The notes: generated from the sequence alone by a model not told the origin. A stretch of DNA of 64,000 nucleotides from Flavobacteriales bacterium (GCA_947460825.1 CANHHA010000005.1:26026-90025), one strand, 5' to 3'. Counted from the first letter of the stretch, positions 44,103 to 58,911 are shown. A program made the numbers and translations.

Positions 44103-44645
44103 ATGGAACATTTTAAAACCGTCAAAGATTCCGAAACAATTTTTACCGAATTAATGACTCCTGGCTATGCCAATTTTGGGGATAAGGTTCATGGAGGGGT
44201 AATTCTCTCTATTATGGATAAAGTAGCATACGCTACGGCGGTTAAGCACTGCGGAGGTTATGTGGTTACCATTTCGGTGGATGGGGTAGATTTTCATGCG
44301 CCAGCTGAAATCGGGAATTTGTTAACCTTAAAATCGCGAGTAAACTATGTAGGGGAAACTTCCATGATTGTTGGAATTAGGGTAGAATCTACCGATATTA
44401 AAACCGGGATCATCAAACACACCAATACGGCTTTTTTTACCATGGTGATGACCAATGCGCCTGAAAATCAATTTGTTCCCGGCTTAATTCTAGAAACAGA
44501 CGAAGACATTCGGCGCTTTGCGGAAGGTTTGTATCTTCGCGACCTAGGTCGGGAGAAACGCAAGACCCTTCGAGGAGATTTGTCAGATAAAACAACGAAT
44601 CAACTCATTGATTTGCTTAAAGATCAGCGCGTTCAAGTTGTTTAA
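44103..44645 (+). CDS. Acyl-CoA thioesterase (hotdog fold, YciA-like)
   Basis: The motif NFGDKVHGGVILSIMDKVAYATA is present and the product is 180 aa. Confidence 0.8.
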   Translation: MEHFKTVKDSETIFTELMTPGYANFGDKVHGGVILSIMDKVAYATAVKHCGGYVVTISVDGVDFHAPAEIGNLLTLKSRVNYVGETSMIVGIRVESTDIKTGIIKHTNTAFFTMVMTNAPENQFVPGLILETDEDIRRFAEGLYLRDLGREKRKTLRGDLSDKTTNQLIDLLKDQRVQVV

Positions 44646-44700: not shown

Positions 44701-44979
44701 CTAATCAATGACCTCTTCTTCTAATGTATTCTTGTTTGGTAGCCAATTAACAATCGTCTTAAGAAGTAGGAATCCACACACGGCACCGACTATTGCAAAA
44801 ATGTAAAACAGGAACCCCGTATTTCCAAAAAGTAAGATGCCAATTACCGCACCAATCACCTCAAATACAAACCAAAAAAGGAAGGTTAAGAATCTATATA
44901 ACCCCGAGGAATAGCCTTTCGATGAGGCTAATTCTCCAATCGTTCTTGAAGCGAAATATATCCCAATGATTTCGAGCAT
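44701..44979 (-). CDS. Small three-TM membrane protein, last gene of the DUF262 cluster
   Basis: The 92 aa product is almost entirely hydrophobic. It starts 3 nt after the stop of the upstream DUF262/DUF1524 gene. Confidence 0.4.
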   Translation of the reverse strand: MLEIIGIYFASRTIGELASSKGYSSGLYRFLTFLFWFVFEVIGAVIGILLFGNTGFLFYIFAIVGAVCGFLLLKTIVNWLPNKNTLEEEVID

Positions 44980-44982
44980 ATT

Positions 44983-47049
44983 CTAATCTTTTATTCCTAA
45001 AAGGAACACCTTTTCATCTTCGTTCCCAAGCGTAACTTCCCATCGTTTTTCCATGAATTCGAGTAATTTTAGTCCCCGTGTCCTAATTTGTTCCGGATTC
45101 CATTCGTTAAGCTGCGCAACTTCCTGTTCTGAATAACTACCATTCATATACCCATTCCGTTTAACGTGTCCATCAGCATGGTAAATCACGTGTTTCTTAC
45201 CCTCGAAACAGTCATTCTGTAAACTCGAATTAATGGAAGAAGATAGGGGTAATAAATTCCCAAGGCTTCCATTATACCGCTTTTTTACGCCTTCCGTAAG
45301 CGTTCCGAAATGAGTTTCCCAACACGCTGCATTTGCCGTTTGCGGATAAATGTGTTCGATTGATATTCGGTCATGTTCACTTCGAATAAAAAGTTGCCAG
45401 CTTACCTTAGGTTGGTTTCGAGCACGCATTAATTCTTCCTCGTATTCGTATAGGAAATACCTCAACCCATTCCATCCGTAATAACCCGTTCCATCCGAAT
45501 TGAATTTCCGGTCTAAATAATCAAGAAACGAGGTTGTTTTTAAGGTACCATTTTCATTTCTTGTCCATCGCGTGTTTTCCGCTAATGCACTGAGTATGGA
45601 GTCGATGGGAAGTTCATTCCTATAGATTCCACGTGCCAGGTTGTAATATTTACTGTTCCCGTAATTTGACTGGGCCCTACATACACGAAACGCAACGAAT
45701 ATAAATCGTTCTATTTCTTGGAGTGCGGTAATACGTTCAGCCTGGCTAATATGCTTGGCAGAAAACAGCGCAGTTATTAAGGGCCGAAAATATCCGATCC
45801 CAATCCGATTTAAGCGATCCATCCATAACTTCTCTGCTGCAGAGAAGTTATCCGTATCCGGATTAAAGGTGTTATACCAATGACCTACCACTTCTCTTAA
45901 ACTGTCTACATAGGCTTTGATATCCGTTAAACTTAAGCTGGAGGTAAATGTTGGTGTATCCTCCAGGTCATCGTCATCCTCTTGTTCTGTTTCTAGATCT
46001 CGTTGTTCTTTAATGATTTCAATCCCGGCAGCCTGAACAGCTACTTTTTTCAGTACTACTTTAGGATTGAATTCTTCATCCAGTAAATATCGAATGTAAT
46101 CGTCGCCACGCTTTCGAGAATATTTGAAATACATGATCCAATGGGTTCGAAGAAAATCATCATCGTTTAATGGGTTTTTCTTATTTCGTCCGAGTTGATA
46201 ATAGATTTCTTTCCAGGTTTGATTGACCGAATTTCGAACCACTTTTCGTTCTTCTTCGCTTACTTCAGTGGATGGGTAAAGCGTCGTTAAATAAATTAAG
46301 CGGTTCTTGAGTAGTTCGAGGTCTGATAGTTTTTTTCCACGATTATTCATGGTTTCAAAGGCCACAAACACATCAAAGTCGTCTGAAATCTCATAGAGAT
46401 TGAACATCAAGCGTTGTGTAAGTTTTTTAAACAACTCGGATAATATGTCTGGCCCCTCTTCTTCAACCTGTGTTTTTAGATTCTCAAGAAAAAAAGCTTT
46501 GGCATGTTCTAGATTGAGCGTGTAATATGTTTCTTCTAATCGGTTAGATGTGTCATGATTAAAGATTCTATGAATCAAAAATTCATAGGAGGGATTATCC
46601 ACTTCATACCCGAATTTATAGGTTTTAATAAGCTTGTTTGGCCCTTGGACCTCAACCAGGTATTGGGATAGTATGTCACTTAGCGAATAGCTGCTAATGA
46701 ATGATTCGTGATCCGATTTCGTTGGGTTTATGGCCCTGCATGTTTCGATCAAACACTGAATGAAAATAGATATTGTTGTAAGTCGTTGCTGCCCGTCTAC
46801 AATATGGCAAGGGGCATATCCGCGGTCTTCGATGAGCCATTTAGCATCTTCCCACTGCTTCGCAATGTCAGCAGAAAACGTTTTAATGGATAATACTCCG
46901 GTATAGTGGTAACGTTCGGCATCAAGGTTGATTAAATCCTCCCAAAAATCAGTGAGTTGTTTTTCTTTCCATGCATAGCCTCTTTGGTAATCAGGAATTC
47001 TGAATACCCGGTGATTAAAGATGGAATGCAAGGTTTGTAATTCTTTCAT
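44983..47049 (-). CDS. DUF262 + DUF1524 (GmrSD/BrxU-like) putative type IV restriction/DNA-modification-dependent nuclease
   Basis: The N-terminal FRIPDYQRGYAW and IVDGQQRLTTISIF are the DUF262 ParB-like NTPase signature. The C-terminal SIEHIYPQ...NLLPLSSSINSSLQN is DUF1524 His-Me finger-like. The product is 688 aa. Confidence 0.8.
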   Translation of the reverse strand: MKELQTLHSIFNHRVFRIPDYQRGYAWKEKQLTDFWEDLINLDAERYHYTGVLSIKTFSADIAKQWEDAKWLIEDRGYAPCHIVDGQQRLTTISIFIQCLIETCRAINPTKSDHESFISSYSLSDILSQYLVEVQGPNKLIKTYKFGYEVDNPSYEFLIHRIFNHDTSNRLEETYYTLNLEHAKAFFLENLKTQVEEEGPDILSELFKKLTQRLMFNLYEISDDFDVFVAFETMNNRGKKLSDLELLKNRLIYLTTLYPSTEVSEEERKVVRNSVNQTWKEIYYQLGRNKKNPLNDDDFLRTHWIMYFKYSRKRGDDYIRYLLDEEFNPKVVLKKVAVQAAGIEIIKEQRDLETEQEDDDDLEDTPTFTSSLSLTDIKAYVDSLREVVGHWYNTFNPDTDNFSAAEKLWMDRLNRIGIGYFRPLITALFSAKHISQAERITALQEIERFIFVAFRVCRAQSNYGNSKYYNLARGIYRNELPIDSILSALAENTRWTRNENGTLKTTSFLDYLDRKFNSDGTGYYGWNGLRYFLYEYEEELMRARNQPKVSWQLFIRSEHDRISIEHIYPQTANAACWETHFGTLTEGVKKRYNGSLGNLLPLSSSINSSLQNDCFEGKKHVIYHADGHVKRNGYMNGSYSEQEVAQLNEWNPEQIRTRGLKLLEFMEKRWEVTLGNEDEKVFLLGIKD

Positions 47050-47059
47050 GCTTGATTAT

Positions 47060-47479
47060 TTAAAGCGCTACCTGATAGATGTCTGATGCATTACGTTGAA
47101 TCCCGTGTTTTACAAATCCATGGTCTTCAGGAATATCTTCAATTAGTGAAAATTGTTTGCAATCCAAGGGGAGACCGGTGAAAATTAAGGTAAATCGGGT
47201 GAATTCCTCTCTAGAAGGCATCCATTGGGGAGCGAGCGTGATTCCATTCCATGTTACTAAGGGACAGTGTTGACCGCTTTCTGTTTTCAAATACGTACTT
47301 TTCCAAATGCGAACATAGGTGCCGTCGGGGCTATGTAAGGAACAATGAACAATCACCTGTTTTTCGGTGACTTCAAAGGTTTTTATTTGTTCATCAACAG
47401 CAATCTTTTCCTTGACTTTAGTACATTCTAACGGAGCGCTCATCTTGGGATTTCTACAAAAATAAAGGTAATGTTGCAA
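47060..47479 (-). CDS. Hypothetical protein, first gene of the DUF262 cluster
   Basis: The product is 139 aa, or 127 aa from the internal MSAPLE start. It lies 10 nt upstream of the DUF262 gene on the same strand. I recognise no motif. Confidence 0.35.
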   Translation of the reverse strand: MQHYLYFCRNPKMSAPLECTKVKEKIAVDEQIKTFEVTEKQVIVHCSLHSPDGTYVRIWKSTYLKTESGQHCPLVTWNGITLAPQWMPSREEFTRFTLIFTGLPLDCKQFSLIEDIPEDHGFVKHGIQRNASDIYQVAL

Positions 47480-47514
47480 TGTGGCGAGAATTACAAATTG
47501 TATTTTTGAACATC

Positions 47515-47649
47515 ATGGATTCACTAACACAAATTGTATTAGGAGGTGCAATTGGGGAATTAGTTGCCGGAAGAAAAATGGGGAATCGCGCCGTGCTCTG
47601 GGGAGCGATCGCCGGAACTATTCCAGACTTGAATGTGTTCTTCAGAGTC
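47515..47649 (+). pseudogene. Orphan 5' fragment (first 45 codons) of a homolog of the 49696-50709 hydrolase gene
   Basis: The 135 nt align to 49696-49830 with about 14 mismatches by hand. The peptide MDSLTQIVLGGAIGELVAGRKMGNRAVLWGAIAGTIPDLNVFFRV differs from the full gene at a single residue (N vs D). Similarity then ends and the frame stops soon after. Confidence 0.8.
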
Positions 47650-47809
47650 AATATGATATCAGGATATTTGCTGAAGGCCTGTATATGAATCAGTTAGGCT
47701 CTAAAAAAAACGGAAAATTATAAAAAGCGATTTCGTTTAAAAAACTCAGGAGGAAATTCTAGTTCAGATTGCAACGGAGCACATGCAGTTAGCGATGTAG
47801 ATTATTTTT

Positions 47810-49555
47810 TTAATCAAGTGTTTTGATCTGTTCAATTATATTGCCTACGGCTGTTGCAGCGCTGTAATATAGATTGTCTTCACCAGTTAATATGCGAATG
47901 TTAACGTAAAGAGTAATTACATTGGCCTGTGTTTTTTTATGAATCAAGCGTTGAAGTGAGTTGTCCATATTGAGTCCAATGGTATTTTGATCTAAACTAA
48001 AATCTTGAGTGACTTTAATTTGATTTGACCCTGTATATTGAACTTTGGATAATCCTTCTGTTACTTGATTTATCACCTTATTTAATAAAGTTTCTGACGA
48101 TAAAGTAGTTTTTTCAGGGTCCCATCCGACAGTGTTTATATCATTTCCATATTCGAGAATAATATCTTTTCTACCCGAAGCCGCGGAGGATAAAATAATA
48201 AAAAATGTATTTTCATTAAATGAATCAATGTCCTGAAGAAATTCTAACAGTGTTGGATTGAACGTTGTGATATTATTTGCTAGAAAACGTTCATATTCTT
48301 TGGAAGAGTTTCCCCCGATACTTGCACCTGATTTATTTAAAAGTTCGAATTCCCGTGCGATGAAGTTTAGATTTAATCCATTAGCTAAGGTATAAGAGAA
48401 ATGAGAAATCCCACGTTCATTATGTCCAATCGCATTAATTAGCACGATATTACTTTCATCATTGAATTGACGGTATCCATATGCGCAATTCGATTTGAAT
48501 GATTCAATAATGCGAATATCAGAAACGCTGCGTTCAGGGCTTGATTTTAATGCCCGAAATCTCAAACATTGCGCTTCTCGGATGCATTCAAATAATTCAC
48601 TTTCACTCAACAAAAATTTGCTTTGAATGTAGTCCGTTGAGGCATAGCGTGGATGAGTTTTGTATTTAAATTGCTTTCCTCCACCGGTGAGTTTAGCAAA
48701 GTGTTTTTCAATTTTTTTGATGCGTTCATTAATTGCTTGCATTTTTCGTTTTTCTTCCAATTGCTCAATAAAAGCTGAGGCAAGAAGACCTGCTGGGAGT
48801 GCGAAGAGAGCAATTCCAAGCAGTCCATTAACCGTGGCTATAACTTTGCCCATTTCACTAATTGGGTTTTTTACGGCAATGGCTCCATAATCTCCCGTAT
48901 ACTTACCAATAGACCAGATGAATACTTCCAAAATATTTTTGAATGAACTTTCTGTATATGCGTTTTCAAAATGGAATATTAGTGCAGAAAGGGTCAAAGA
49001 CAAGAGTAGAACCCCCAATAGAGAAGTAATTATATCCTCTTTGCGTGCATTGAATGCATTTGAAATTACGTTAAATGAGGGAATGTAACGCGCGATACGC
49101 CATAAACGAAGAATTCTCAATGCACTTAAGCTACTAATAAATGGGATTTCAAAAATGTCTAAGAGAATTGGCGTTAGGCTAAGAAGATCAATAATTCCTA
49201 CAAACGAGAGTAAATAAGATATTTGAGCATTTTTAACATATCCCAAAGATTTTGCATAGAAAAGGCGTAAGGAAAATTCAATTAAAAAGAAAAAGGCAAG
49301 TCCCCACTTCAAGAGCACATGGTTATCAATATAAGAATTACCGCCACTACTTAGAATATAATCCAATGTGCTTACTAAAATTGCGCAAATAATTAATGCG
49401 TTACCAATAAAACTAACCTTAGATCCCCAGATTTCATCATCGAGAATATCAAGTACAATGCGGCCAAATAAGGATTGTTTCGACGTAGAATTTGTTTTTT
49501 CTGATAATTCTGTAAAAGGAAGTGAAAAGAAATCTCGTATTATAGTAAAAATCAT
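47810..49555 (-). CDS. Voltage-gated-like 6-TM ion transport protein fused to a ~300 aa uncharacterised cytoplasmic domain
   Basis: It has S1-S6-like helices, an S4-like LRILRLWRIARY, and a pore region FIWSIGKYTGDYGAI. The filter TGDYG replaces the K+ channel TVGYG. The remaining ~300 aa have no motif I recognise. Confidence 0.7.
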   Translation of the reverse strand: MIFTIIRDFFSLPFTELSEKTNSTSKQSLFGRIVLDILDDEIWGSKVSFIGNALIICAILVSTLDYILSSGGNSYIDNHVLLKWGLAFFFLIEFSLRLFYAKSLGYVKNAQISYLLSFVGIIDLLSLTPILLDIFEIPFISSLSALRILRLWRIARYIPSFNVISNAFNARKEDIITSLLGVLLLSLTLSALIFHFENAYTESSFKNILEVFIWSIGKYTGDYGAIAVKNPISEMGKVIATVNGLLGIALFALPAGLLASAFIEQLEEKRKMQAINERIKKIEKHFAKLTGGGKQFKYKTHPRYASTDYIQSKFLLSESELFECIREAQCLRFRALKSSPERSVSDIRIIESFKSNCAYGYRQFNDESNIVLINAIGHNERGISHFSYTLANGLNLNFIAREFELLNKSGASIGGNSSKEYERFLANNITTFNPTLLEFLQDIDSFNENTFFIILSSAASGRKDIILEYGNDINTVGWDPEKTTLSSETLLNKVINQVTEGLSKVQYTGSNQIKVTQDFSLDQNTIGLNMDNSLQRLIHKKTQANVITLYVNIRILTGEDNLYYSAATAVGNIIEQIKTLD

Positions 49556-49695
49556 ATCAATGTCTCTGGATGTTGTGAGTTATTTTTTCCTTACAAAGGT
49601 AATTCAATCAAGAATAACTGATGATTATGTAAGTAATTAATTAAAAATTCAGTCATATAATTCGCCCAAAGTAAACGAACTACTACCTTTATTTC

Positions 49696-50709
49696 ATGGA
49701 TTCGTTAACACAGATTGTATTAGGAGGCGCAATTGGGGAATTAGTTGCCGGAAGAAAAATGGGGAATAGGGCAGTGCTCTGGGGAGCGATCGCCGGAACT
49801 ATTCCAGACTTAGATGTATTCTTTCGCGTGTTCTATCATCCGATTGAGGCGGCATTGGTTCACCGTGGATTTTCCCACTCCTTACTTTTTTCCCTGTTAC
49901 TATCGCCATTGCTTGGTTTGATATTAAATAGGGTTACGAAGGGAACCCTCGGATTTTGGTTGTGGACGCAGCTGTTTTTTTTGGGAATTGTAACCCACCC
50001 AATTCTCGATATGTTTACCAATTATGGAACTCAATTCCTGTGGCCATTTGAATCAAGAATAACCTTCAATTCAGTATTTGTAATTGACCCCTTATACACG
50101 GTTCCATTTATGGTGCTACTCATTTGGGCGATGCGATTGGATAGAAATAGCGCAACAAGAAGAAGACTAAATCGAATCGGATTGATTTATTCTACCGCTT
50201 ATTTGTTCTTGGGTCTACTGATTAAATGGTTTGTTTGGACGGAATCTCAGGCCTATGTAAAAGCACATCACTTGAAGGTGAATCGCATGATGGTTACGCC
50301 AATGCCTTTTACGTGTTTTTATTGGTATGTGTTAGGGGAGAATAATGATCAATACGTGGTGATGCACCGATCAATTTTTAATGATCAAATCACAGATAAG
50401 CCCGTGGTCATTGACCGTGGACCTTGGAGAATCCGGCATTTATCGTGGGCAGGAACTAATCACAACCGGGACTTACATCGGTTTACTTCGGATTTTTGCT
50501 TAATTCAGGAACAAGGACAAAGGTTGCGTGCCTATGATTTGCGCTTCGGGTATACCGGTAAGTTCACCCAGGAAATAATAAATATCCCGATAATGGGCTA
50601 TGAATTTGCGTTGCGTGATCAGAAGATTGTGAATACCAAGATGCTGCGATTGGCGCCTTGGGGGGCACTCGATTTTAATTATTATTGGAGTAAGGTATTA
50701 GGGAATTAA
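49696..50709 (+). CDS. Membrane-bound metal-dependent hydrolase (YbcI/DUF457 family)
   Basis: The family signature is MDSLTQIVLGGAIGE...GTIPDLDVFF...HRGFSHS. Several TM segments are present. Confidence 0.7.
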   Translation: MDSLTQIVLGGAIGELVAGRKMGNRAVLWGAIAGTIPDLDVFFRVFYHPIEAALVHRGFSHSLLFSLLLSPLLGLILNRVTKGTLGFWLWTQLFFLGIVTHPILDMFTNYGTQFLWPFESRITFNSVFVIDPLYTVPFMVLLIWAMRLDRNSATRRRLNRIGLIYSTAYLFLGLLIKWFVWTESQAYVKAHHLKVNRMMVTPMPFTCFYWYVLGENNDQYVVMHRSIFNDQITDKPVVIDRGPWRIRHLSWAGTNHNRDLHRFTSDFCLIQEQGQRLRAYDLRFGYTGKFTQEIINIPIMGYEFALRDQKIVNTKMLRLAPWGALDFNYYWSKVLGN

Positions 50710-50719
50710 ACGATTATCG

Positions 50720-51253
50720 TTACTCAACTGCTTCTATATATGCTTTGATAGTCGTTAAGTATTCTTTAAATCTAGGGAGGCGATGGGTATCGTTGACTTG
50801 GAGCACCTGTAGTTTATTCGTCGCGTCTGATTTCCATGTTGAATGATTAATAAGTTCATCTTGCATGGGACAAATTAATAGGGCATGCGTAGGGTATTCA
50901 ATCTTAATTAATTGAGGGATTAAGCGTTTGGGGAAATTGAAGTCAATGATTCGTTTTGAAAGATCCAGTAAGGGAGCTGATAAAATTAATTTCGTTTGTA
51001 GTCCATTCAAGGTACGTTTATCCCTCAGCTGATAAGCGAAATTAGCCCCAGTGGAATCTCCAAAAACGATGAGTTGGTTGTTGTTTTCAAATGAGGTGTA
51101 GGTTTGTGATATAAGGCGTTCAATATTTGAATGTTCCGTCCATTCCATGCAATGAAAATCAAACATATCAGGGAAGAAAGCCTGCAAAGCCAGAAATTTA
51201 GTGGAGTTCCGATCAGAGCCTAATCCGTGTATGTATAGCAAGGGTGGGGGCAT
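50720..51253 (-). CDS. YqiA-like small alpha/beta-hydrolase (esterase), gene 10 of the operon
   Basis: It has LLYIHGLGSDRNS, the nucleophile elbow G-D-S-T-G (FGDSTGANFA) and a C-terminal NDTH. The product is 177 aa. Confidence 0.55.
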   Translation of the reverse strand: MPPPLLYIHGLGSDRNSTKFLALQAFFPDMFDFHCMEWTEHSNIERLISQTYTSFENNNQLIVFGDSTGANFAYQLRDKRTLNGLQTKLILSAPLLDLSKRIIDFNFPKRLIPQLIKIEYPTHALLICPMQDELINHSTWKSDATNKLQVLQVNDTHRLPRFKEYLTTIKAYIEAVE

Positions 51254-51262
51254 GTCTTTATG

Positions 51263-51733
51263 TTAATTTGACATATTTGAGTACCCGATCATGGTATTAG
51301 CAAGAATCGTAATTGGTGAACTTAACACGTAACACAACAATACAAAAACGACTCCATGGGTTAAGGCTAAAATGATGTTGTTTTTTCCTAATTCAGCTTT
51401 TTCATTTTCTGGTGTTGTCAAATTCATTAAAAGAAAACTGAAGCGAAATAAAAGAAACGAAAAAACAAAGGCGATCAAGGCAAAAAGTAAATAGAATGCA
51501 ATTGCATTAAACCAATTCCCTGAACTTGTATAAAAAAAGAAGGAACTGACGGCAATTTCTGAAAAATCATGTAAGTTGATTCCAAAACCGATTAAGGTAC
51601 ATATTAACAGAATTCCTGTGGCGTGATTGAGTGGGTTAGTTATTTTTCGAAAAAAAGAGGAGAGAATCCTTGTGGCTAACATCAGGTAGAAAATGGTTAC
51701 CAGTGCCGCAATTATTACATTTAGTGTTTCCAT
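51263..51733 (-). CDS. Small 4-TM membrane protein, gene 9 of the operon
   Basis: The 156 aa product has four hydrophobic helices. I recognise no family. Confidence 0.4.
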   Translation of the reverse strand: METLNVIIAALVTIFYLMLATRILSSFFRKITNPLNHATGILLICTLIGFGINLHDFSEIAVSSFFFYTSSGNWFNAIAFYLLFALIAFVFSFLLFRFSFLLMNLTTPENEKAELGKNNIILALTHGVVFVLLCYVLSSPITILANTMIGYSNMSN

Positions 51734-51745
51734 AGTTATTTATTT

Positions 51746-52669
51746 TTAATTATAAGTTACTTCCCAATTAATCCATACCGACCACATGCGCATATTCCCA
51801 AGTTGAAAGGTGGTAGAATAATTTGTTGTCTCCCAAGGATAATACATTTCACCCCGAAAGGTAAGATGTTTACTAGGAATTACCGGTGGATAACCTGCGA
51901 CCCCTAGCATGGCATGACCGCCTGGAGTTTCATTGTTTGAGTAGGCCGCTATTCCCGTAAGCATTGCCGCACGAACCCCTTGCATTTTTAGCAATGCATA
52001 ACATATCAATGATTTTGTATCGCAATCCCCTGTTCTCGCAAAAATAAATTCTGTTGGAGTATATATAGCAAACGGATGAATGTATCCGCAACATCCACCA
52101 GGTTGACAAGAGCCCTGATTACCACAGCCTTGGCTTTCGATGTAGGTATACTTCGGGGTTTGTATGGCGGTAATCACAAAATCTAATCGTTCCTGTCCCG
52201 TTAACCCTCTTAGGTTCATTTCTTTTACTAATGCCTCATTGAGTCTATACAGTGGGATTTTACATGCACTTATGAAATCACGATAAAGTTGAGCTTCTCC
52301 CGTAAAAATATATCCTTCTCTAAAACCTTTAGCCTTTTGAAGTTCTTCTTCAGGAACGCTAAAAGACACATCGCAAGAATTCCCATCATAGTCTACCCAT
52401 TTCCAATGGATGAATTTCATTTTTCTTCTAAGCGTATCTTTTCTTATTTTATTGGTATCAATAACATCAATAAAATTCGAGGTGTCTTTTGCGATATAGA
52501 ACGAATCAACTGCGACAATGGTAGTATCAAAACGATTATACCAGCGATCGAAATCTTGATCACTAAAAAAGGGGTTATTGAACATAGGGAATACATAAAG
52601 TATTATTAATCCTAAGGTTAACCAAAAGAGCAAATTCAATGACCTGAAAAGTGATTTCTTTTCTTTCAT
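51746..52669 (-). CDS. N-terminally anchored protein with transglutaminase-like Cys-His-Glu core, gene 8 of the operon
   Basis: It has an N-terminal TM (LLFWLTLGLIILYVF) and a Cys-rich stretch (GCGNQGSCQPGGCCG). The motifs GDCDTKSLICYALLKMQG, then GGHAMLGV, then YYPWETT follow. These are shared with the 57961-58911 product. Confidence 0.5.
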   Translation of the reverse strand: MKEKKSLFRSLNLLFWLTLGLIILYVFPMFNNPFFSDQDFDRWYNRFDTTIVAVDSFYIAKDTSNFIDVIDTNKIRKDTLRRKMKFIHWKWVDYDGNSCDVSFSVPEEELQKAKGFREGYIFTGEAQLYRDFISACKIPLYRLNEALVKEMNLRGLTGQERLDFVITAIQTPKYTYIESQGCGNQGSCQPGGCCGYIHPFAIYTPTEFIFARTGDCDTKSLICYALLKMQGVRAAMLTGIAAYSNNETPGGHAMLGVAGYPPVIPSKHLTFRGEMYYPWETTNYSTTFQLGNMRMWSVWINWEVTYN

Positions 52670-53640
52670 TTTGAGCCTAGGGTTTCGGAGTAATTGTATT
52701 CCGTTTCTATGTTGTGTTTAACCCGTTGTATTTCTCGGGTTGAAAGCAAATGCATGAGTAAGCTGGTACTAATTGCATCAATGGTAACATGTTTTAATAA
52801 TTCGCCACCTGATATTTCATCACTTTTCTTCACTAAAATGTAAGGAATTAGAAACACACAAGCAAATAATAAGTCGATCAGTACTTTCGTATTCCCGATA
52901 CCCGCCATTAACACATCAAATGTCATAAGTAAGGAATGGCAATGAATGAGTTTGAACGCTTCTCCCGTTGAATTATCTACCATCTTTAGTGTCCAATAAG
53001 CTTCCATTTTTTGCTCATTAAACGTTGTGTTTCCTTGTTGTTGGTAGTCTTTTGCTAGATGATTCAATTCAGTTGAATGTTTAATTTCTTGAAATTTTTC
53101 ATTGAGTGAGTGTCGGAACATCCAAATTTCAATAGCACTGGCAACAATGAATGATAACAATAAGGCAAGGGAAACAATGGACGCCGAAATTAATAACTGA
53201 GAGAGATGGAACGGATTGGGTTCAGTTTTAATGTGAGATGCACTGGCAGTTATTCTATAATTACTTACAATCTCTAACGCTTCTTCATCTGATAAGGTCG
53301 TCATGTTTAGCCCTTTATAGTCATTGTATAAACTTTCCATATCAGAAAGCTGTTCTTTTAAATTTCTATATCGAGTTTGTAATGAAAGGAATAAAAGTAA
53401 TTGAAGCAATAAAAAAAACACACCACCTAAGAAAATTCCGCAGGCGATTGCCAGTCCCCAATGGTTGAATAAAACAAGACCAAAGATTAGACCCGATGCA
53501 GTACCTAATAACGCTAAAACGATCAACATTAGCCCCAACATATTGAAGATGAATGTTTGCCTGCGCGCTACTTCCTCAGGTAAATGGTTTAGAAGCTCCT
53601 TCCGTATGCCGAATATGTAAGTTCCGATTATCATGGGCAA
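52666..53640 (-). CDS. Polytopic membrane protein, divergent DUF4407-like, gene 7 of the operon
   Basis: It has two N-terminal TMs, a coiled-coil linker and further TMs. FIVASAIEIWMFRHSL parallels LTISAPLETYIFKREI of the 55832-57199 product. It lacks the NLDRF motif. Confidence 0.4.
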   Translation of the reverse strand: MPMIIGTYIFGIRKELLNHLPEEVARRQTFIFNMLGLMLIVLALLGTASGLIFGLVLFNHWGLAIACGIFLGGVFFLLLQLLLFLSLQTRYRNLKEQLSDMESLYNDYKGLNMTTLSDEEALEIVSNYRITASASHIKTEPNPFHLSQLLISASIVSLALLLSFIVASAIEIWMFRHSLNEKFQEIKHSTELNHLAKDYQQQGNTTFNEQKMEAYWTLKMVDNSTGEAFKLIHCHSLLMTFDVLMAGIGNTKVLIDLLFACVFLIPYILVKKSDEISGGELLKHVTIDAISTSLLMHLLSTREIQRVKHNIETEYNYSETLGSK

Positions 53641-54737
53641 AAAATATCAATAGTCCATTCTGTGGTTTCGAATTCCCTACTCGGTATAACCCGCACTAGC
53701 AATTCAGTAGGTTTGTTTTTATTGTAATGGTAATCGAATTTCAATTCACCATTGCCTTGTGCGTACCCCATGGGAACTAAATAATCCAAATTATATTTTT
53801 TCCTATTTACAGTAATTGGATTAAAACGCTGATCGTTAGTAAGGGCAACGAGTTTGCCATCATAAATCACTTCAATCCGATCCGGAATTTCATACATTTC
53901 ATAACGTAAACGCAAAGTGCCGCTCTGTTGACCTAAATCAAAGGTGTACGATTTGGGCGTATTTTTTCCATTGGGATCACTGATTTTACCACACGGTGTT
54001 GTTTCTTTTTTAGTCTTTTCAATCTTTTCTAGGAGTTTGTCTTTCTTTTCCTGAAGTTTTGAAATTTCTTTTTTTTCTTTCCAAGCATCGTAGTAACAAT
54101 GTAAGGTACGCCCGAATTGAGTGCACTGACCGAGCAATCCCAATAGTAGCAGCAATAGTAATAAGTAAAGCAACCATTTTAAGCACCCAGAAGGCGTATT
54201 ACAGCCTCCCGGAGAACATCCGCTAAGGGAGTTTTGGATGCCCTTTCCTAACCCTCGATTACACCCGCCATTCTTTGACCACTTTTGATCGTTCCACTGA
54301 TTTTTAGCATATCTATTTTCCTCGGGCTCATCGCGCGTACCAACGGATTCGTCAAAGTCCATTTGACTCACTTTTGAGAAAACTGTTCCTTTGAGCGTAG
54401 CAATGGTTTTATCATTCATCCGAGTTACTTGGCAAACCTCAACATCCGCTAGTTTCATGCCGTGTAGCGAAAAGATGGCATCATTCGTTAAAGGCCAATA
54501 GGGTGAGCGTTGAATTTCTATGTTTTTTACTTCATTGAAGTTCAATGAGCTCAATGCTTGTTGGTATTCTTCTTCAGTAATTTGTGTGGAATGAGAAATG
54601 ATTCCTCTATGAATCGTGATTTTATGCTCGTTACCAGCGGGGATGATTGATGAAGTAGTCAATGGTTCTTCTTGAAGGGTAGTAAATGTTCCTTCAAATG
54701 CACCTTTAACTAGATATTTATATGCTCCTATTCCCAT
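53631..54737 (-). CDS. Bitopic protein: N-terminal domain, Cys/Gly-rich segment, poly-Leu TM, coiled coil, unknown beta-rich C-terminal domain. Gene 6 of the operon
   Basis: It is a paralog of 54740-55804 over the first ~230 aa. The key segment is GCSPGGCNTPSGCLKWLLYLLLLLLLLGLLGQC followed by KEKKEISKLQEKKDKLLEKIEKTKKE. The C-terminal domain is unrecognised. Confidence 0.5.
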   Translation of the reverse strand: MGIGAYKYLVKGAFEGTFTTLQEEPLTTSSIIPAGNEHKITIHRGIISHSTQITEEEYQQALSSLNFNEVKNIEIQRSPYWPLTNDAIFSLHGMKLADVEVCQVTRMNDKTIATLKGTVFSKVSQMDFDESVGTRDEPEENRYAKNQWNDQKWSKNGGCNRGLGKGIQNSLSGCSPGGCNTPSGCLKWLLYLLLLLLLLGLLGQCTQFGRTLHCYYDAWKEKKEISKLQEKKDKLLEKIEKTKKETTPCGKISDPNGKNTPKSYTFDLGQQSGTLRLRYEMYEIPDRIEVIYDGKLVALTNDQRFNPITVNRKKYNLDYLVPMGYAQGNGELKFDYHYNKNKPTELLVRVIPSREFETTEWTIDIFCP

Positions 54738-54739
54738 GC

Positions 54740-55804
54740 TTATTGCTTTCTTACTCTGATGGTAACTTTCATGTTCTGATTGTATTCACGGGTTCCCCTA
54801 TCATCCATAAATTTGTACAAGGGCATGGGGATTGCATCTTTGTTTTGTCTTCCAACGACAGTAATTCGTTGTTCATCAATACCTTTTAAGGTCAGAATAT
54901 GTTTGATTTTTTCAGCGCGTTTAATATCCAATCCTGTTGATTCAATAGATTTGTCATCTTGATGACCTTCTAACACAAAAGATTTATCGTCATAGGTTTC
55001 AATAACTTCTGCTAGACGATCTACGGTGCCGTTCATTCCTGTGGAATTAATATGGATATCGGTTGAATTTCTATAAAAATAAATGGTAGATACATTTGCT
55101 AAGGCATTTTTTAGATTCAAATCATATTGCTGTTTTGTTTCTTTAACTTCTTTTTCCTTTTCTATTCTTTCCTTTTTGGCAAGATCAGCATTAACACAGG
55201 CCTGCTTATCATTTGCAATGTGATTGCATGCACGAATCAACCCCAAAAGCAAAAGCAACAGGAGAAGTAACCCCAGGATTTTCCAAAAATTCGTTTTACA
55301 CCCCTGATACAACGTGCCACACCCATTAATACCGCTGTTTACGCATCCATTATTCGATTGATACCATGGTTGATTGTCGCTATATCCTGAATCGTTAAAT
55401 GGATCTGGCCTAAGTTTCTTTAGTTGTGGCGAAGCATAGGTTTTACCATAAGCCATCGATTCTACCTCCCCATAGGTTTCGCCATCGATGTCGTAGGTTT
55501 TGATAATCTTAGGTTCTACCAAGATTAATTGAGTAAAGGTAAAAAGTTGATTTCCAATGAACGGGCCATGTTGCCCGGGGTTTATGGTAACGTTTGGGAC
55601 ATTAGAGAGCACAAAACTTTTGAGTTTCCGATAATCTTGAGGTTTGAATTCAGTAAAAAACTCTGAAGCATCAAGGGTTCCTTGATATACTTGTACCGTA
55701 TGGGTGTTATCGGTTGGCGGGCTATCTGCCCGTCCTAAGAACCCACGTTGTTTAGTTTTAAAGTTACCTCTAAACTTACCGTAGACGATATGAGGACCAG
55801 TCAT
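54740..55804 (-). CDS. Bitopic protein with C-terminal OmpA/MotB-like peptidoglycan-binding domain, gene 5 of the operon
   Basis: The central segment is NNGCVNSGINGCGTLYQGCKTNFWKILGLLLLLLLLLGLIRAC followed by a coiled coil. The C-terminal part is OmpA_C-like (IYFYRNSTDI...VLEGHQDD...RAEKIKHILTLKGIDEQRITVVGRQNKD). Confidence 0.6.
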   Translation of the reverse strand: MTGPHIVYGKFRGNFKTKQRGFLGRADSPPTDNTHTVQVYQGTLDASEFFTEFKPQDYRKLKSFVLSNVPNVTINPGQHGPFIGNQLFTFTQLILVEPKIIKTYDIDGETYGEVESMAYGKTYASPQLKKLRPDPFNDSGYSDNQPWYQSNNGCVNSGINGCGTLYQGCKTNFWKILGLLLLLLLLLGLIRACNHIANDKQACVNADLAKKERIEKEKEVKETKQQYDLNLKNALANVSTIYFYRNSTDIHINSTGMNGTVDRLAEVIETYDDKSFVLEGHQDDKSIESTGLDIKRAEKIKHILTLKGIDEQRITVVGRQNKDAIPMPLYKFMDDRGTREYNQNMKVTIRVRKQ

Positions 55805-55831
55805 TTAATCAAAATATAGGGATGACTTCGC

Positions 55832-57199
55832 TTAATCGTTCTTCACAAATTTATTTGGGTCCTTATCAATTTCCTCCTTTTCTTTGGCGGCATACAGGCT
55901 CATCGCATGTTTCGCATTTTCCTTTTCCAAATCATTTTGATGTTTTGCAACCTCGGCAATACGCATGGCATTATAGTTTTCACGATATCTGTGCATGTTA
56001 TTGTTCTCATCAATTACTTCATGCAAGGAAATTCCTTGCTTAGCTTCAAGAATTTGTTCAACATTTTGTTGCATCCAATCATATGAAGACTTGTTCAACA
56101 TGAATTTGAAAATTACAGGAGCCACCTCAATAATCATGAAAAGAATTCGGACTAACCAAATCGGTGCAGAAGCTTTACCGTAGATTTCATCCTCCTTTCC
56201 TTTGATTACTTCATTGGTAACAGGATCAAATTTGGCAACTTTTTTACCAGTATGTGCCAAGCGTTCAAGCATCATGATTTGATCCAAAAAACCAGGTTTT
56301 GAAGCTAAGACCTCTTTCGTTGATTTTTCTTTTTGTTTTTCAACTTCAGCCTTGAATTTTTCTTTTTCTTTTTCAATTGTTGCAAGCTCCTCTCTAAGTC
56401 TGTTTAACTCTTGAAGTTCCAAATCTTTAATCCGCTCTTTCTTTTTTGCTACGGGGCCGTCTCCCCAACCATTACCTGTATTTTTACCGCTCAATTCATC
56501 CTGATATTCCTGATTTGCCTTGTCGTACTTTTCTTGTTGTAACTTTACTTGTTTATCTTTTTCTTCAAATTGAGAATGAGTTCGTTTATTAAGGTTTATG
56601 TTCTCTTGTTCAATACGATACTCTTCGCTTAGCGCAAGTTGCTTCATAGATAACTTCCATTCTCGGTATATTTCGCGTTTAAAGATATAGGTTTCCAAAG
56701 GCGCTGAAATGGTTAATCCAATCACAATAGCCATAAAAAGCCTCGGTGCCATTGCTAATAGTTCGCTTGATTTTCCTTTTTTAGGTAGGATGGTTATATT
56801 CTCTGTTCCATCGCCTTTAACCGTGGAAACAATGAATCGGTCTAGGTTAAAAATAATTAGCCCCCAAATAAGAGCAACGGGGACAGTAATCCATAGATTA
56901 CCTTTGAGTGCAACCTCCCCAGTAATGGGGTCAATAGCACCGCTGGGATCCGGACTAGCAAAAATTGTTTGCATCGCAAATCCCATCGCCAACACAGCCA
57001 TTACCGTAGTAGCAAGAACCACTCCACCAATTCCCGCATGTTTTATATGGTCAGAATACGGCGCGAATTCCAGGATTTTTTTGTCAGAACCTCCACATTT
57101 CCATAAAGTTTCCATGATGAATTTCATGAAAGGACTGTATTCTGTTTTTTTGTAATCAACTAGTTCATTCATCTCAATGGATTTATTGTTCTCGCTCAT
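55832..57199 (-). CDS. DUF4407-like polytopic membrane protein with long central coiled coil, gene 4 of the operon
   Basis: The N-terminal part reads CGGSDKKILEFAPYSDHIKHAGIGGVVLATTVMAVLAMGFA...GLIIFNLDRFIVS. A ~130 aa Lys/Glu-rich coiled coil follows, then a C-terminal TM. The family assignment is from memory of the DUF4407 pattern. Confidence 0.6.
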   Translation of the reverse strand: MSENNKSIEMNELVDYKKTEYSPFMKFIMETLWKCGGSDKKILEFAPYSDHIKHAGIGGVVLATTVMAVLAMGFAMQTIFASPDPSGAIDPITGEVALKGNLWITVPVALIWGLIIFNLDRFIVSTVKGDGTENITILPKKGKSSELLAMAPRLFMAIVIGLTISAPLETYIFKREIYREWKLSMKQLALSEEYRIEQENINLNKRTHSQFEEKDKQVKLQQEKYDKANQEYQDELSGKNTGNGWGDGPVAKKKERIKDLELQELNRLREELATIEKEKEKFKAEVEKQKEKSTKEVLASKPGFLDQIMMLERLAHTGKKVAKFDPVTNEVIKGKEDEIYGKASAPIWLVRILFMIIEVAPVIFKFMLNKSSYDWMQQNVEQILEAKQGISLHEVIDENNNMHRYRENYNAMRIAEVAKHQNDLEKENAKHAMSLYAAKEKEEIDKDPNKFVKND

Positions 57200-57968
57200 T
57201 TGTTTTATTTTTAAAAGGTTTATTCTCGGTAATTAAGGTGCCGTTGTATTTGGAAGGGTTGAAATTATACCCTTTTACAATTTTTTGCTCTCGAATGTAG
57301 CTATTTATTTCATTTTTAATTGGATTATCTACCATTTTAAGTTGTAAACGTTTTGAAACATCGCTCATTCGTTTGTACTTAGGCACCAATTTCTTGAAAA
57401 GCGAAAAAGTATATGAAGTAGTATGAGATTTACCGTTGAATTTCGAGTACCCTGTTTTATTTACTAGAACCCTAGATTCAGGTTGGTTAAACGCGTTTGA
57501 GCCCCCCAAATGACGTGTGTTTAAGCGTACCACTAACTCATCTGGAATACATAGTTTTTGCGCTATTTTCCCTTTGAAGGTATAGGCATACAAGGTATAA
57601 ATATTTCCTTTTTCTCGAATTACGGTTATTAAACTGTTTTGTTTAAGTTTAGCATAATCGGGATTGATATCAATTCGATAGGCTCCCTTTACTTGCCATG
57701 TTAAAATAATGGGACAGCCGATGTACACTAAGCCTTGACTTGGATGATAGTAGTATTCCTTCTCTTCTGCTTGATGGATTAAATAATCTGGAGCTATTCG
57801 CCAACTGAAATCTACGATTTCCGGAGATTCATTCGTGAAAAATATAATTAGAATCCGTTTTATTAAACCATAATACGGAATAATCGCCATGAACAAGCAT
57901 AAACCAATAAAAATAGCCCACCCCTCCATGGGAGAAAAGGTCCCGAACCACTTGAATACCTCAACCAT
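57183..57968 (-). CDS. N-terminally membrane-anchored hypothetical protein, gene 3 of the operon
   Basis: It has a TM (GWAIFIGLCLFMAIIPYYGLI) followed by a ~200 aa soluble domain with no motif I recognise. It overlaps both neighbours, by 8 nt and 17 nt. Confidence 0.4.
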   Translation of the reverse strand: MVEVFKWFGTFSPMEGWAIFIGLCLFMAIIPYYGLIKRILIIFFTNESPEIVDFSWRIAPDYLIHQAEEKEYYYHPSQGLVYIGCPIILTWQVKGAYRIDINPDYAKLKQNSLITVIREKGNIYTLYAYTFKGKIAQKLCIPDELVVRLNTRHLGGSNAFNQPESRVLVNKTGYSKFNGKSHTTSYTFSLFKKLVPKYKRMSDVSKRLQLKMVDNPIKNEINSYIREQKIVKGYNFNPSKYNGTLITENKPFKNKTNEREQ

Positions 57969-58911
57969 GGAATGTTAAGTTAAAAACATGAATATTCTCA
58001 AAATTGATTTGTTGTTGTTTTTCTAAGGATATCGGAGCGGTTGTTTCTAGCAATAAATAGGATTTTCCGTTGTGGAGGTGTGTTCTACCAGGGAAATTTA
58101 ATCCATGAACCCCTACAATCATATGATGCACTTCTTCCATGGTACAATGAACCATGATTATATTTTCAGATGCATTATCAATTAACTCTTTTAAAATACC
58201 ACAGAACAATACGGACTTGCTGTCGCAATCGCTATATGAAATTACAAATGATTCATGCGGCATGGATACCCCAAAATATGCATATGCTCCGGCGTTAAAA
58301 TTTGGTTGGCCATAGGGTATAAATTGAACAAAATTCAATGCAGCCATAACTCGGTTATCATAAGAATCATTGGAGCCAAGTTCCTGAACGATAAATGTTG
58401 CGATTTCTTTAGATAAATTTACGGACAATCGAATGATCTCGTTAAAATCCACCCCATAATCGTACGTTTGATTAGATCGATAAAAAAAACCATCGCGATT
58501 CATGTGTTCATGCAAATATTGTTCATCCGTGGTTTGAATTGCATAGTATCCATCAGATACAGGCGCAAAGCAAGAGTTGTGAACACCAAAACCACTAACT
58601 AATTCGGACATTTCTGCTGTTGATATTTCTGTTCGAAAGGTTACATTAGCTTTATTCGTAAAAGGAAAGGTATATCTAAATGTAGCCTTTTCACCCAAAA
58701 TACTGCCTTCTACATTATATCCATAGCTAGCGTAGGAACCTGGAGCTGTCCGATAATTTTTAGGCTTACTTGCCTTGGTAGTTAGTTGCTCAATAATTAA
58801 AAGATTATCATGTCCAGCAATGGAAGCACCTTTTATTTTGAATGTAAAGCCCGTGTTCAAGTAGATAACACAGGCAACTAACATTAACATATAAATATTG
58901 AGTTCTGACAA
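57961..58911 (-). CDS. N-terminally anchored protein with transglutaminase-like Cys-His-Glu core, gene 2 of the operon
   Basis: It has a signal/TM (IYMLMLVACVIYL). The motifs SDCDSKSVLFCGILKELI, then VHHMIVGV, then YLLLETT follow. They are in the same order and spacing as in the 51746-52669 product. Confidence 0.5.
   Translation of the reverse strand: MSELNIYMLMLVACVIYLNTGFTFKIKGASIAGHDNLLIIEQLTTKASKPKNYRTAPGSYASYGYNVEGSILGEKATFRYTFPFTNKANVTFRTEISTAEMSELVSGFGVHNSCFAPVSDGYYAIQTTDEQYLHEHMNRDGFFYRSNQTYDYGVDFNEIIRLSVNLSKEIATFIVQELGSNDSYDNRVMAALNFVQFIPYGQPNFNAGAYAYFGVSMPHESFVISYSDCDSKSVLFCGILKELIDNASENIIMVHCTMEEVHHMIVGVHGLNFPGRTHLHNGKSYLLLETTAPISLEKQQQINFENIHVFNLTFHG

Follow-up and report, generated by a model that had tools for sequence, protein, structure and literature searches.

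We have analysed a 64,000-nt stretch of DNA from a Flavobacteriales bacterium (GCA_947460825.1 CANHHA010000005.1:26026-90025), referred to below as the window, in which a gene for an ion-channel-like protein lies between two direct repeats of the 5′ end of ydjM, a gene encoding a DUF457/YdjM membrane protein. We conclude that the window probably contains two alternative alleles of one locus, termed A and B, placed in tandem through a single illegitimate junction, and that the arrangement is the scar of recombination rather than a new mobile element. The original prediction had been of a bare single-gene cassette of foreign DNA. The DNA between the repeats is instead a segment of the alternative allele of the locus, and it includes the 3′ end of a thioesterase gene in addition to the channel gene. 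The source organism is a freshwater member of the Crocinitomicaceae (Flavobacteriales), represented solely by metagenome-assembled genomes (MAGs) and metagenomes. Species-representative genomes were scanned, yielding 80 ydjM loci, and the neighbouring genes were then mapped; the comparison covers 116 loci in all, identified here by L numbers, and all the sequences compared are MAGs or metagenome contigs.

The repeated 5′ end of ydjM

A repeat search of the window returned a single two-copy family, at 47513-47642 and 49694-49823 (130 nt, 92% identity, spacing 2181 nt). A core of 39 nt has two exact occurrences in the window, and 0 of 100 shuffled sequences gave any match. The predicted repetition of 47515-47649 at 49696-49830 is therefore confirmed. 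The right copy forms the first 128 nt (49696-49823) of an intact ydjM gene on the + strand (49696-50709, 337 aa; Pfam PF04307, E 3.8e-35). The left copy (47515-47642, + strand) is an orphan 5′ stub comprising codons 1-42 and 2 nt of codon 43. Thus the expectation of one intact gene and one orphan stub holds.

The limits of the homology require some correction. It begins 2 nt upstream of the ATG, and it does not extend to the end of codon 45. Codons 44-45 of the stub (AGA GTC, read as R-V in the ydjM frame) are thioesterase DNA, so that ydjM homology ends at 47642, inside codon 43. Over the 135 nt of codons 1-45 the two copies differ at 14 positions with one amino acid change (N40 vs D40), as had been counted by hand, but within the 128 nt of genuine homology there are 10 differences, of which 9 are synonymous and 1 is nonsynonymous when the parsimonious path is taken. 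Analysis of the 42 codons by the Nei-Gojobori method gave 8 synonymous and 2 nonsynonymous differences, with synonymous divergence (dS) 0.318, nonsynonymous divergence (dN) 0.021 and dN/dS 0.067 (binomial P = 3.6e-4 against neutrality).

Among the differing nucleotides, six (in codons 3, 4, 6 and 11, and two in codon 25) are present in every stub and also in the functional ydjM gene of L019, and four of them (codons 3, 4, 6 and 11) are found in the intact ydjM genes of L018 and L020-22. The set is thus an allelic haplotype and not the product of decay after duplication, because functional genes carry it. This shared haplotype upholds the proposal of orthologous alleles whose divergence took place under purifying selection in separate lineages, and not of a recent duplication in situ. 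The right copy of the window differs at 6-7 of 135 positions from relatives that lack the insert (L013, L015 and L016), and the stub differs from them at 16-18 positions. Unexpectedly, the copy that departs from these relatives is therefore the stub and not that of the intact gene. The two copies are identical in L019 (128/128 nt), but differ at 8-10 positions in the window and among the L105 group.

The stub, over which the window and L019 share 96% identity, behaves as a non-functional, slowly decaying pseudogene. It has acquired private changes, namely D40N in the population of the window and A18P in its sister group (L105, L107 and L108). Residue 40 of YdjM is aspartate in 73 of 74 orthologs, and residue 18 is never proline among the 74. 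An open reading frame (ORF) of 69-72 aa with a weak YdjM match in Pfam is called here, but its tail is out-of-frame thioesterase sequence that varies by lineage.

An illegitimate junction with an orphan thioesterase fragment

To resolve the junction, we aligned its sequence in the window and in L019 to undisrupted thioesterase genes (those of L017 and L023) and to undisrupted ydjM genes. It lies at 47637-47642, in a microhomology of sequence ATTCTT (the ancestral form; the window now has GTTCTT) that is common to ydjM codons 41-43 and thioesterase codons 129-130. At the joint, marked here by a slash, ydjM …GATGTATTCTT/TCG… is fused to thioesterase …TTAATTCTT/CAGAGTC…. In codons, ydjM reads …GAT GTA TTC TT/T CGN GTG… and the thioesterase reads …GGA TTA ATT CTT/CAG AGT CAA GAT GAT… (I129 L130 Q131…). 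The shared sequence is 6 nt in length (9 of 11 with flanks included), within the range of about 3-10 bp that characterizes homology-facilitated illegitimate recombination (HFIR). The original prediction had allowed for either Campbell-type or homology-facilitated integration, and the single illegitimate junction with microhomology that this predicts is what we find.

Comparison with L017, L019 and L023 identifies the sequence from 47643 onward as thioesterase (…ATT CTT CAG AGT CAA GAT GAT, i.e. I L Q S Q D D). Translation downstream of the stub reads QYDIRIFAEGLYMNQLGSKK…, which corresponds, with divergence, to the C-terminus of the thioesterase encoded 3 kb upstream. The orphan fragment (47643-47800, + strand) comprises 158 nt, from codon 131 to the stop codon of a type-B allele, and is 88-90% identical in nucleotide sequence to the 3′ end of the intact thioesterase gene of L017. 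It is frameshifted and decaying: an A-run is 2 nt longer than in L017 and polymorphic in length (A7/A8) in the population, and there is an in-frame stop codon in L019. The run, at 47683-47690, is A8 in the window, L001 and L005, and A7 in L002-4, L006 and L105-108, which fits either neutral decay or sequencing slippage. The tail of the intact, type-A thioesterase and the orphan tail are very different alleles.

The same layout with the identical junction is found in L019, L105, L107, L108 and L111, and in all contigs of the same population. A metagenome-wide scan for the junction motif gave a single contig, from the same population, and no new lineages; the motif is present solely in this population and its relatives.

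The DNA between the repeats thus consists of the thioesterase 3′ end, the channel gene (47810-49555, − strand) and the channel/ydjM intergenic region, and it is collinear with type-B loci (85% nucleotide identity to L017 over 47638-49459). The claim that the repeats enclose one opposite-strand gene and neither an integrase nor a transposase is correct as to the absence of a recombinase and the position of the channel gene, but it omitted the 158-nt thioesterase fragment. On the right side the channel block continues into ydjM just as in type-B loci, and there is no second illegitimate joint; the position of the original homologous crossover appears to have been overwritten by later recombination or conversion. 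L019 and L017 share 91-97% identity over the block of thioesterase fragment, channel gene and intergenic region, and about 79% over the backbone; the block is bounded on its left by the junction, as for an HFIR insert that differs in ancestry from its surroundings.

Both parental arrangements and the empty site exist in relatives

The interval between bbp2–thioesterase and ydjM is, on comparison of the loci, a small replacement-type variable hotspot at which a group of freshwater Crocinitomicaceae has two or more alternative alleles. Its cargo is p139, gmrsd with p139, the channel gene, nothing (L023) or both kinds together, so that conserved flanks surround alternative cargo among close relatives. 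In allele A, p139 adjoins ydjM, with or without the genes sm92 and gmrsd. This is the arrangement in L018 and L020-22, and in L013, L015 and L016, which are the nearest relatives of the window (YdjM 86-93% identical in amino acid sequence). In allele B, found in L017, L093/94 and L110, an intact thioesterase gene with the C-terminal tail of the orphan fragment is followed by the channel gene and ydjM, with no repeat. A third allele, C, has the thioesterase gene next to ydjM (L023). The window and the others that share its junction are composites of A and B.

The predicted empty site exists in L013, L015 and L016, where window sequence 47060-47642 and that from 49695 onward form one continuous stretch. 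In L016, for example, the segments 46130-47642 and 49695-50751 map to a single stretch. However, what is restored is adjacency of p139 and ydjM, and not that of the thioesterase and the hydrolase-like gene as had been anticipated. In the loci of type B (L017, L093/94 and L110) the channel gene occupies this position without any repeat, which had been named beforehand as an observation that would refute the insertion reading. The distribution of loci indicates that the channel gene is a long-standing neighbour of ydjM in the clade, and not simply foreign cargo.

The GC content of the insert, 34.0%, is the lowest of any 2-kb stretch of the window (38.8 ± 2.4%), but this is uninformative as proof of foreign origin since the channel gene is equally low in GC in L017 and L019.

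A more divergent group of loci, L101-L104 (e.g. L101 9779-12375), has the order gmrsd–p139–channel–ydjM without a thioesterase fragment. Between p139 and the channel gene, beside p139, there is a degraded remnant of the ydjM 5′ end of about 30-45 nt, with ATG changed to TTG and a 2-nt deletion. It would appear that the composite is either older and has decayed in these genomes, or was formed independently. Amino acid identity between L101-104 and the window is 93% for GmrSD, compared with 62% for the channel, 69% for YdjM and 77% for Bbp2; because of this disparity the GmrSD gene has, on the evidence of sequence, demonstrably been exchanged on its own.

A probable later crossover inside the channel gene

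The divergence between the two repeat copies most probably did not arise with the founding insertion, but was brought in by later allelic exchange. In sliding windows of 120 nt, for which the short-window identities are noisy, identity to L019 falls through 96, 85 and 78% while that to L110 rises through 78, 88 and 93%, placing an approximate breakpoint of homologous recombination in the channel gene at 48770-48830. From 47.87 to about 48.77 kb, covering the 3′ two-thirds of the channel gene, the window is 96-100% identical to L019 (for which the backbone value is about 90%), but beyond the breakpoint identity drops to 57-70% over the sequence encoding the N-terminus of the channel and to 35-50% in the intergenic region. 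Over the 5′ third of the channel gene and the intergenic region it is L110, a type-B locus without interruption, that the window matches, at 92-98% identity. The start of ydjM in L110, of which 29 nt are on the contig, matches the right copy and has its haplotype.

By these identities the breakpoint separates an L019-like left part, containing stub and junction, from an L110-like right part that includes the right repeat copy. A crossover at about 48.77-48.83 kb means that the ancestry of the junction and stub differs from that of the right copy, and this would account for the almost exclusively synonymous divergence. The attribution of that divergence to the founding insertion itself is thus probably incorrect: L019 has the same junction with identical copies, and the right copy of the window would have come by the later crossover. 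The junction is seen again in independent assemblies (ENA, JGI, NCBI and Logan), as is the breakpoint.

The near-identical channel variants P0005, P0014 and P0015 were considered as non-composite parents and rejected, as all are composites; the parent type was found in P0018, at L110. Separately, we note that the region 47400-47550 (the 5′ end of p139 and the intergenic region, together with ~35 nt at the start of the stub) is nearly identical to genomes of the L021 type, with the order thioesterase–p139–ydjM. It is clearly more diverged from L016, although L016 is the nearest over ydjM, indicating further fine-scale mosaicism to the left of the junction.

The probable origin of the composite

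We propose the following origin. The junction and its presence in other genomes, the two parental arrangements, the empty site, the mosaic breakpoint and the nonsynonymous changes particular to stubs are observed; the pathway of recombination, the direction of the founding event and the order of events are inferred. Allele A (thioesterase(A)–[sm92–gmrsd]–p139–ydjM) and allele B (thioesterase(B)–channel–ydjM) would normally be swapped by homologous recombination in the conserved flanks. On one occasion DNA carrying one allele would have entered a cell carrying the other. One end would have recombined homologously and the other joined illegitimately at ATTCTT, between ydjM codons 41-43 and thioesterase codons 129-130. 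A linear fragment may have undergone HFIR, or a fragment recircularized at that joint may have integrated by a single crossover. The product would have been additive, i.e. thioesterase(A)–sm92–gmrsd–p139–ydjM(1-43)/thioesterase(B)(131-end)–channel–ydjM, leaving orphan stubs of the ydjM 5′ end and the thioesterase 3′ end back to back. The repeats were probably identical or nearly so when formed, as they still are in L019. Ordering the events by parsimony, we suppose that the composite next became more widespread and that ordinary homologous recombination rearranged it; in the lineage of the window a crossover inside the channel gene would have joined an L019-like left side (junction and stub) to an L110-like right side (channel N-terminus, intergenic region and ydjM).

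A number of observations weigh against this scheme. A type-B donor like L017 predicts that one of the repeat copies in L019 should resemble L017, yet neither does (32-33 differences in 135 nt). It follows that the donor shared the ydjM allele of the recipient, or that gene conversion took place subsequently; equally, the identity of the copies in L019 could stem from gene conversion rather than being the original state. A donor of the ydjM 5′ end similar to L017 is in fact rejected for the present copies, both of which show 26-33 differences from L017 in 135 nt. In classical HFIR an insertion is usually accompanied by a deletion, but here the net result is a duplication. In MAG and metagenome data, assembly chimeras of co-occurring strains could mimic some of the mosaicism. 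Lastly, the layout of L101-104 suggests that the composite may be older or recurrent, and some of the empty sites could then be secondary deletions between repeats.

Alternative explanations

The direction of the founding event could have been the reverse, and we regard this as possible, if somewhat doubtful. The resident would have been of type B, and an incoming fragment of thioesterase(A)–sm92–gmrsd–p139–ydjM(1-43), anchored upstream in bbp2 or the 5′ part of the thioesterase gene, would have been joined illegitimately into codons 129-130 of the resident thioesterase gene. The channel gene would then be native, and the insert would be the GmrSD block with the stub. This has the canonical topology of HFIR and presents no topological difficulty. 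It agrees with the conservation of the divergent channel–ydjM pair across lineages and contexts (L017, L093/94, L097-100, L101-104 and L110), with the independent movement of GmrSD seen in L101-104, and with the match of the right half of the window (channel N-terminus, intergenic region and ydjM) to the uninterrupted type-B locus L110. On the other hand, in L019 it is the segment of thioesterase fragment, channel and intergenic region, bounded by the junction, that has the appearance of recent exchange, the nearest relatives by ydjM are of type A, and the intact thioesterase gene of the composite is a full-length type-A gene, so that the left crossover must lie further upstream.

The composite might also have begun as a tandem duplication in situ. 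Unequal illegitimate sister exchange at ATTCTT in a type-B genome would have duplicated the segment from thioesterase codon 129 to ydjM codon 43, and the left channel copy would subsequently have been replaced by type-A cargo through homologous recombination. The illegitimate step then needs just one genome, tandem duplications at microhomology are common, and the identity of the L019 repeats is explained. We nevertheless consider this unlikely. The second event requires a right crossover within the 128-nt stub, there is no genome with two channel genes among the 116 loci, and the intact and orphan thioesterase tails are very different alleles.

It is more improbable still that the stub is a maintained small gene, encoding a one-helix membrane peptide of 57 aa or acting as a regulatory leader, in which the synonymous excess results from purifying selection in place. 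The ATG and native upstream region have been kept, an ORF is called, and the sequence is 96% conserved between the window and L019. But the changes D40N and A18P arose after the junction was formed, the synonymous differences belong to a haplotype that is also present in functional genes (L019, L018 and L020-22), the C-terminal tail of the ORF is out-of-frame thioesterase, and in L101-104 just a degraded remnant without the ATG is left.

Similarly, we give little credence, while finding it worth stating, to the idea that the orphan ends may act as portable homology arms. The channel gene, or reciprocally GmrSD, would then be a recombinase-free plug-in cassette dependent on RecA. By recombining with each other, the 128-nt repeats would release it as a circle of 2181 bp and restore a perfect ydjM gene, and the circle could re-enter any relative that carries ydjM. 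No circular form was detected among the contigs. Short contigs with the channel gene alone are assembly breaks at identical repeat tracts of 38-39 nt, and the 19-nt end overlap of L106 lies within such a tract; this is a weak negative.

A site-specific mobile cassette, inserted by an integrase that targets the 5′ end of ydjM and bringing a replacement for it, is extremely improbable. There are indeed direct repeats that start at a gene start around a small single-gene insert, and this insert has the lowest GC content in the window, although the channel gene is low in GC in L017 and L019 also. However, Pfam searches revealed no integrase, transposase or other recombinase in the insert or in the roughly 10 kb to each side of it. 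A repeat search at 47.6-47.8 and 49.55-49.7 kb revealed no inverted repeats or attC-like structures at the borders, and there is no tRNA gene near the locus. The left end of the insert is a thioesterase fragment collinear with the alternative allele, and the right end is not a junction but continuous with type-B loci. Searching for the cassette with different flanks, as had been suggested, does reveal channel homologs in other contexts (L097-100 and L112-116), but none has fragments of ydjM or thioesterase at its borders. The channel-only contigs that break at repeat tracts provide no distinct sign of a circle. An integron cassette is rejected: there is no attC-like feature and no integrase, and the ends of the insert are gene fragments of an alternative allele.

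Relationship to known systems

HFIR combines homologous recombination at one end with an illegitimate join at the other, usually at a microhomology of 3-10 bp (PMC3240628, summarizing de Vries & Wackernagel 2002, Prudhomme et al. 2002 and Meier & Wackernagel 2003). Single crossover of recircularized fragments in Escherichia coli generated duplications of 109-950 bp of the homologous locus (PMC3240628). Both pathways fit the anatomy of the present locus: there is a joint at microhomology on one side, the sequence on the other side continues through homologous DNA, and the end of a gene is directly repeated. As in HFIR, non-homologous DNA has been placed beside a conserved gene using a presumed homologous anchor and one illegitimate joint at 6 nt, with no recombinase needed. 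It differs in that experimental HFIR usually pairs insertion with deletion in the recipient, whereas here the incoming DNA would have had homologs of both flanks and the joint fell early, giving duplication of gene ends. As in Campbell-type single crossover, direct repeats of part of the homologous gene flank the insert and their length of 128 nt is within the reported range; the joint would be the point of circularization. Unlike that case, no circular intermediate was detected, and the L019 copies lack the chimerism of donor and recipient expected with an L017-like donor.

Homologous and illegitimate recombination have likewise been invoked for the orphan arrays of type VI secretion system effector-immunity genes, Rhs and contact-dependent inhibition systems, in a model for Vibrio cholerae (PMC5361080). 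There too incoming alleles of a module are added and not substituted, remnants of previous alleles are displaced and gene ends become orphaned. But those arrays are under toxin-immunity selection, whereas the orphans here are ydjM 5′ and thioesterase 3′ ends without evident function, from a single stacking event. The locus resembles flexible genomic islands and core defence hotspots (PMC10872708, PMC10250203) in having core flanks (bbp2 and thioesterase on one side, ydjM on the other) that recombine around alternative cargo, including a GmrSD nuclease. It is very small, however, each allele having 1-3 genes, one of the alleles consists of an ion channel and not of defence or glycosylation genes, and the additive merger is rare. 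Compared with a site-specific integrative element, there is no adjoining recombinase, and the ends of the element are not found at other sites independently of the flanks. We therefore regard the composite as a further natural example of an already known process, here at a small replacement-type island or defence hotspot, and not a new kind of mobile element.

Genes of the hotspot and its surroundings

The left conserved flank of the hotspot in the window is an acyl-CoA thioesterase gene of the 4HBT family (44103-44645, + strand; Pfam PF03061, E 4.9e-18). This is a type-A allele with its own C-terminal tail, 88-93% identical in amino acid sequence to those of L019 and L020-22 and 70% to the type-B thioesterase of L017. 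The type-A cargo that follows on the − strand (44701-47049) consists of the small membrane protein gene sm92 (44701-44979) and a gene for a GmrSD-family DUF262/DUF1524 nuclease (44983-47049). The latter matches GmrSD_N and GmrSD_C in Pfam and HEC-06/Orf5/SspE-like systems in PADLOC, so that recognized defence genes are among the cargo of the hotspot. Both genes are missing from the thioesterase–p139–ydjM genomes L020-22. In L014 (4523-5054) just fragments of gmrsd (aa 599-686 and 172-260) are present beside sm92, and the defence gene is eroding there. The p139 gene (47060-47479, − strand) is the divergently transcribed neighbour of ydjM in type-A genomes, adjoining it in L013, L015, L016, L018 and L020-22, and has no match in Pfam or PADLOC. 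The type-A p139/ydjM intergenic region (47480-47514) is still joined to the stub, and is collinear with L021 and L016 as far as, and into, the start of ydjM. No match to a defence family was found in PADLOC for the channel, p139 or sm92.

The channel gene, itself recombinant, encodes a protein of 581 aa with a Kv-type N-terminal half of six transmembrane segments (Pfam Ion_trans, E 8e-13) and an uncharacterized C-terminal α/β domain. Foldseek matched the channel fold to Kv1, Kv2 and Kv4 channels (E about 1e-8). The pore motif is YTGDYG and not the canonical TxGYG, and T220, D222 and Y223 are invariant in 38 homologs. The C-terminal domain of ~290 aa is predicted with confidence (mean predicted local distance difference test score 92.9), with H385 and D442 invariant. 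It has no sequence match in Pfam or the PDB, just weak fold similarity (template-modelling score 0.35-0.45) to α/β folds like those of M14 carboxypeptidases and amidases. Over the region encoding it (47860-48770; the range compared in L019 was 8160-9070, and in L017 the same) nucleotide identity is 97-100% to L019 and 94-98% to L017, compared with about 90% and 79% for the respective backbones, and this segment looks to have spread recently across species. The divergent intergenic region between channel and ydjM (49556-49695) is of a type termed B2, 92-96% identical to that of L110 and 35-50% to those of L019 and L017. The channel and ydjM genes are rejected as a universal functional pair, since channel homologs of 41-47% identity occur in unrelated contexts and most ydjM orthologs have no channel gene within 10 kb.

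The ydjM gene is modular. Nucleotide similarity to L018, L019 and L020-22 ends near 50343, and L013-16 are similar throughout to the 3′ end; the C-terminal ~120 aa (50343-50709) occur as alternative modules. Just downstream, a gene for a 177-aa α/β-hydrolase-like protein (50720-51253, − strand; weak UPF0227 and Hydrolase_4 matches) is polymorphic for presence, being missing from the otherwise collinear composites L019, L105, L107 and L108, and there is a variant of 155 aa in L002-L004. Beyond it, downstream of the hotspot, a long co-directional run of mostly uncharacterized genes (51263-58911, − strand; DUF350-like, transglutaminase-like, two DUF4407-like, OmpA-like and others) is kept in L019 at 93-94% nucleotide identity.

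Implications

Additive integration by HFIR or Campbell-type recombination has been well characterized in the laboratory, but clean natural examples are scarcer. The value of this locus is that the parental alleles, the empty site, the exact microhomology junction and the later reshuffling can all be read from environmental genomes of uncultured freshwater Bacteroidota. Later homologous exchange can make the scar of a duplication resemble a foreign orthologous fragment. There is also a consequence for annotation: the YdjM-like ORF of 57-69 aa is a pseudogene fragment with a thioesterase fragment hidden behind it, and a pattern of synonymous-only differences is no evidence that the stub functions.

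If the orphan ends did serve as portable homology arms, they would provide a general route by which replacement-type hotspots turn additive and stack cargo, and the near-identity across species of the C-terminal domain of the channel (97-100% on backbones of 79-90%) would then reflect active spread of the unit. The locus itself shows a replacement-type hotspot turning additive, with a defence allele and a channel allele kept together.

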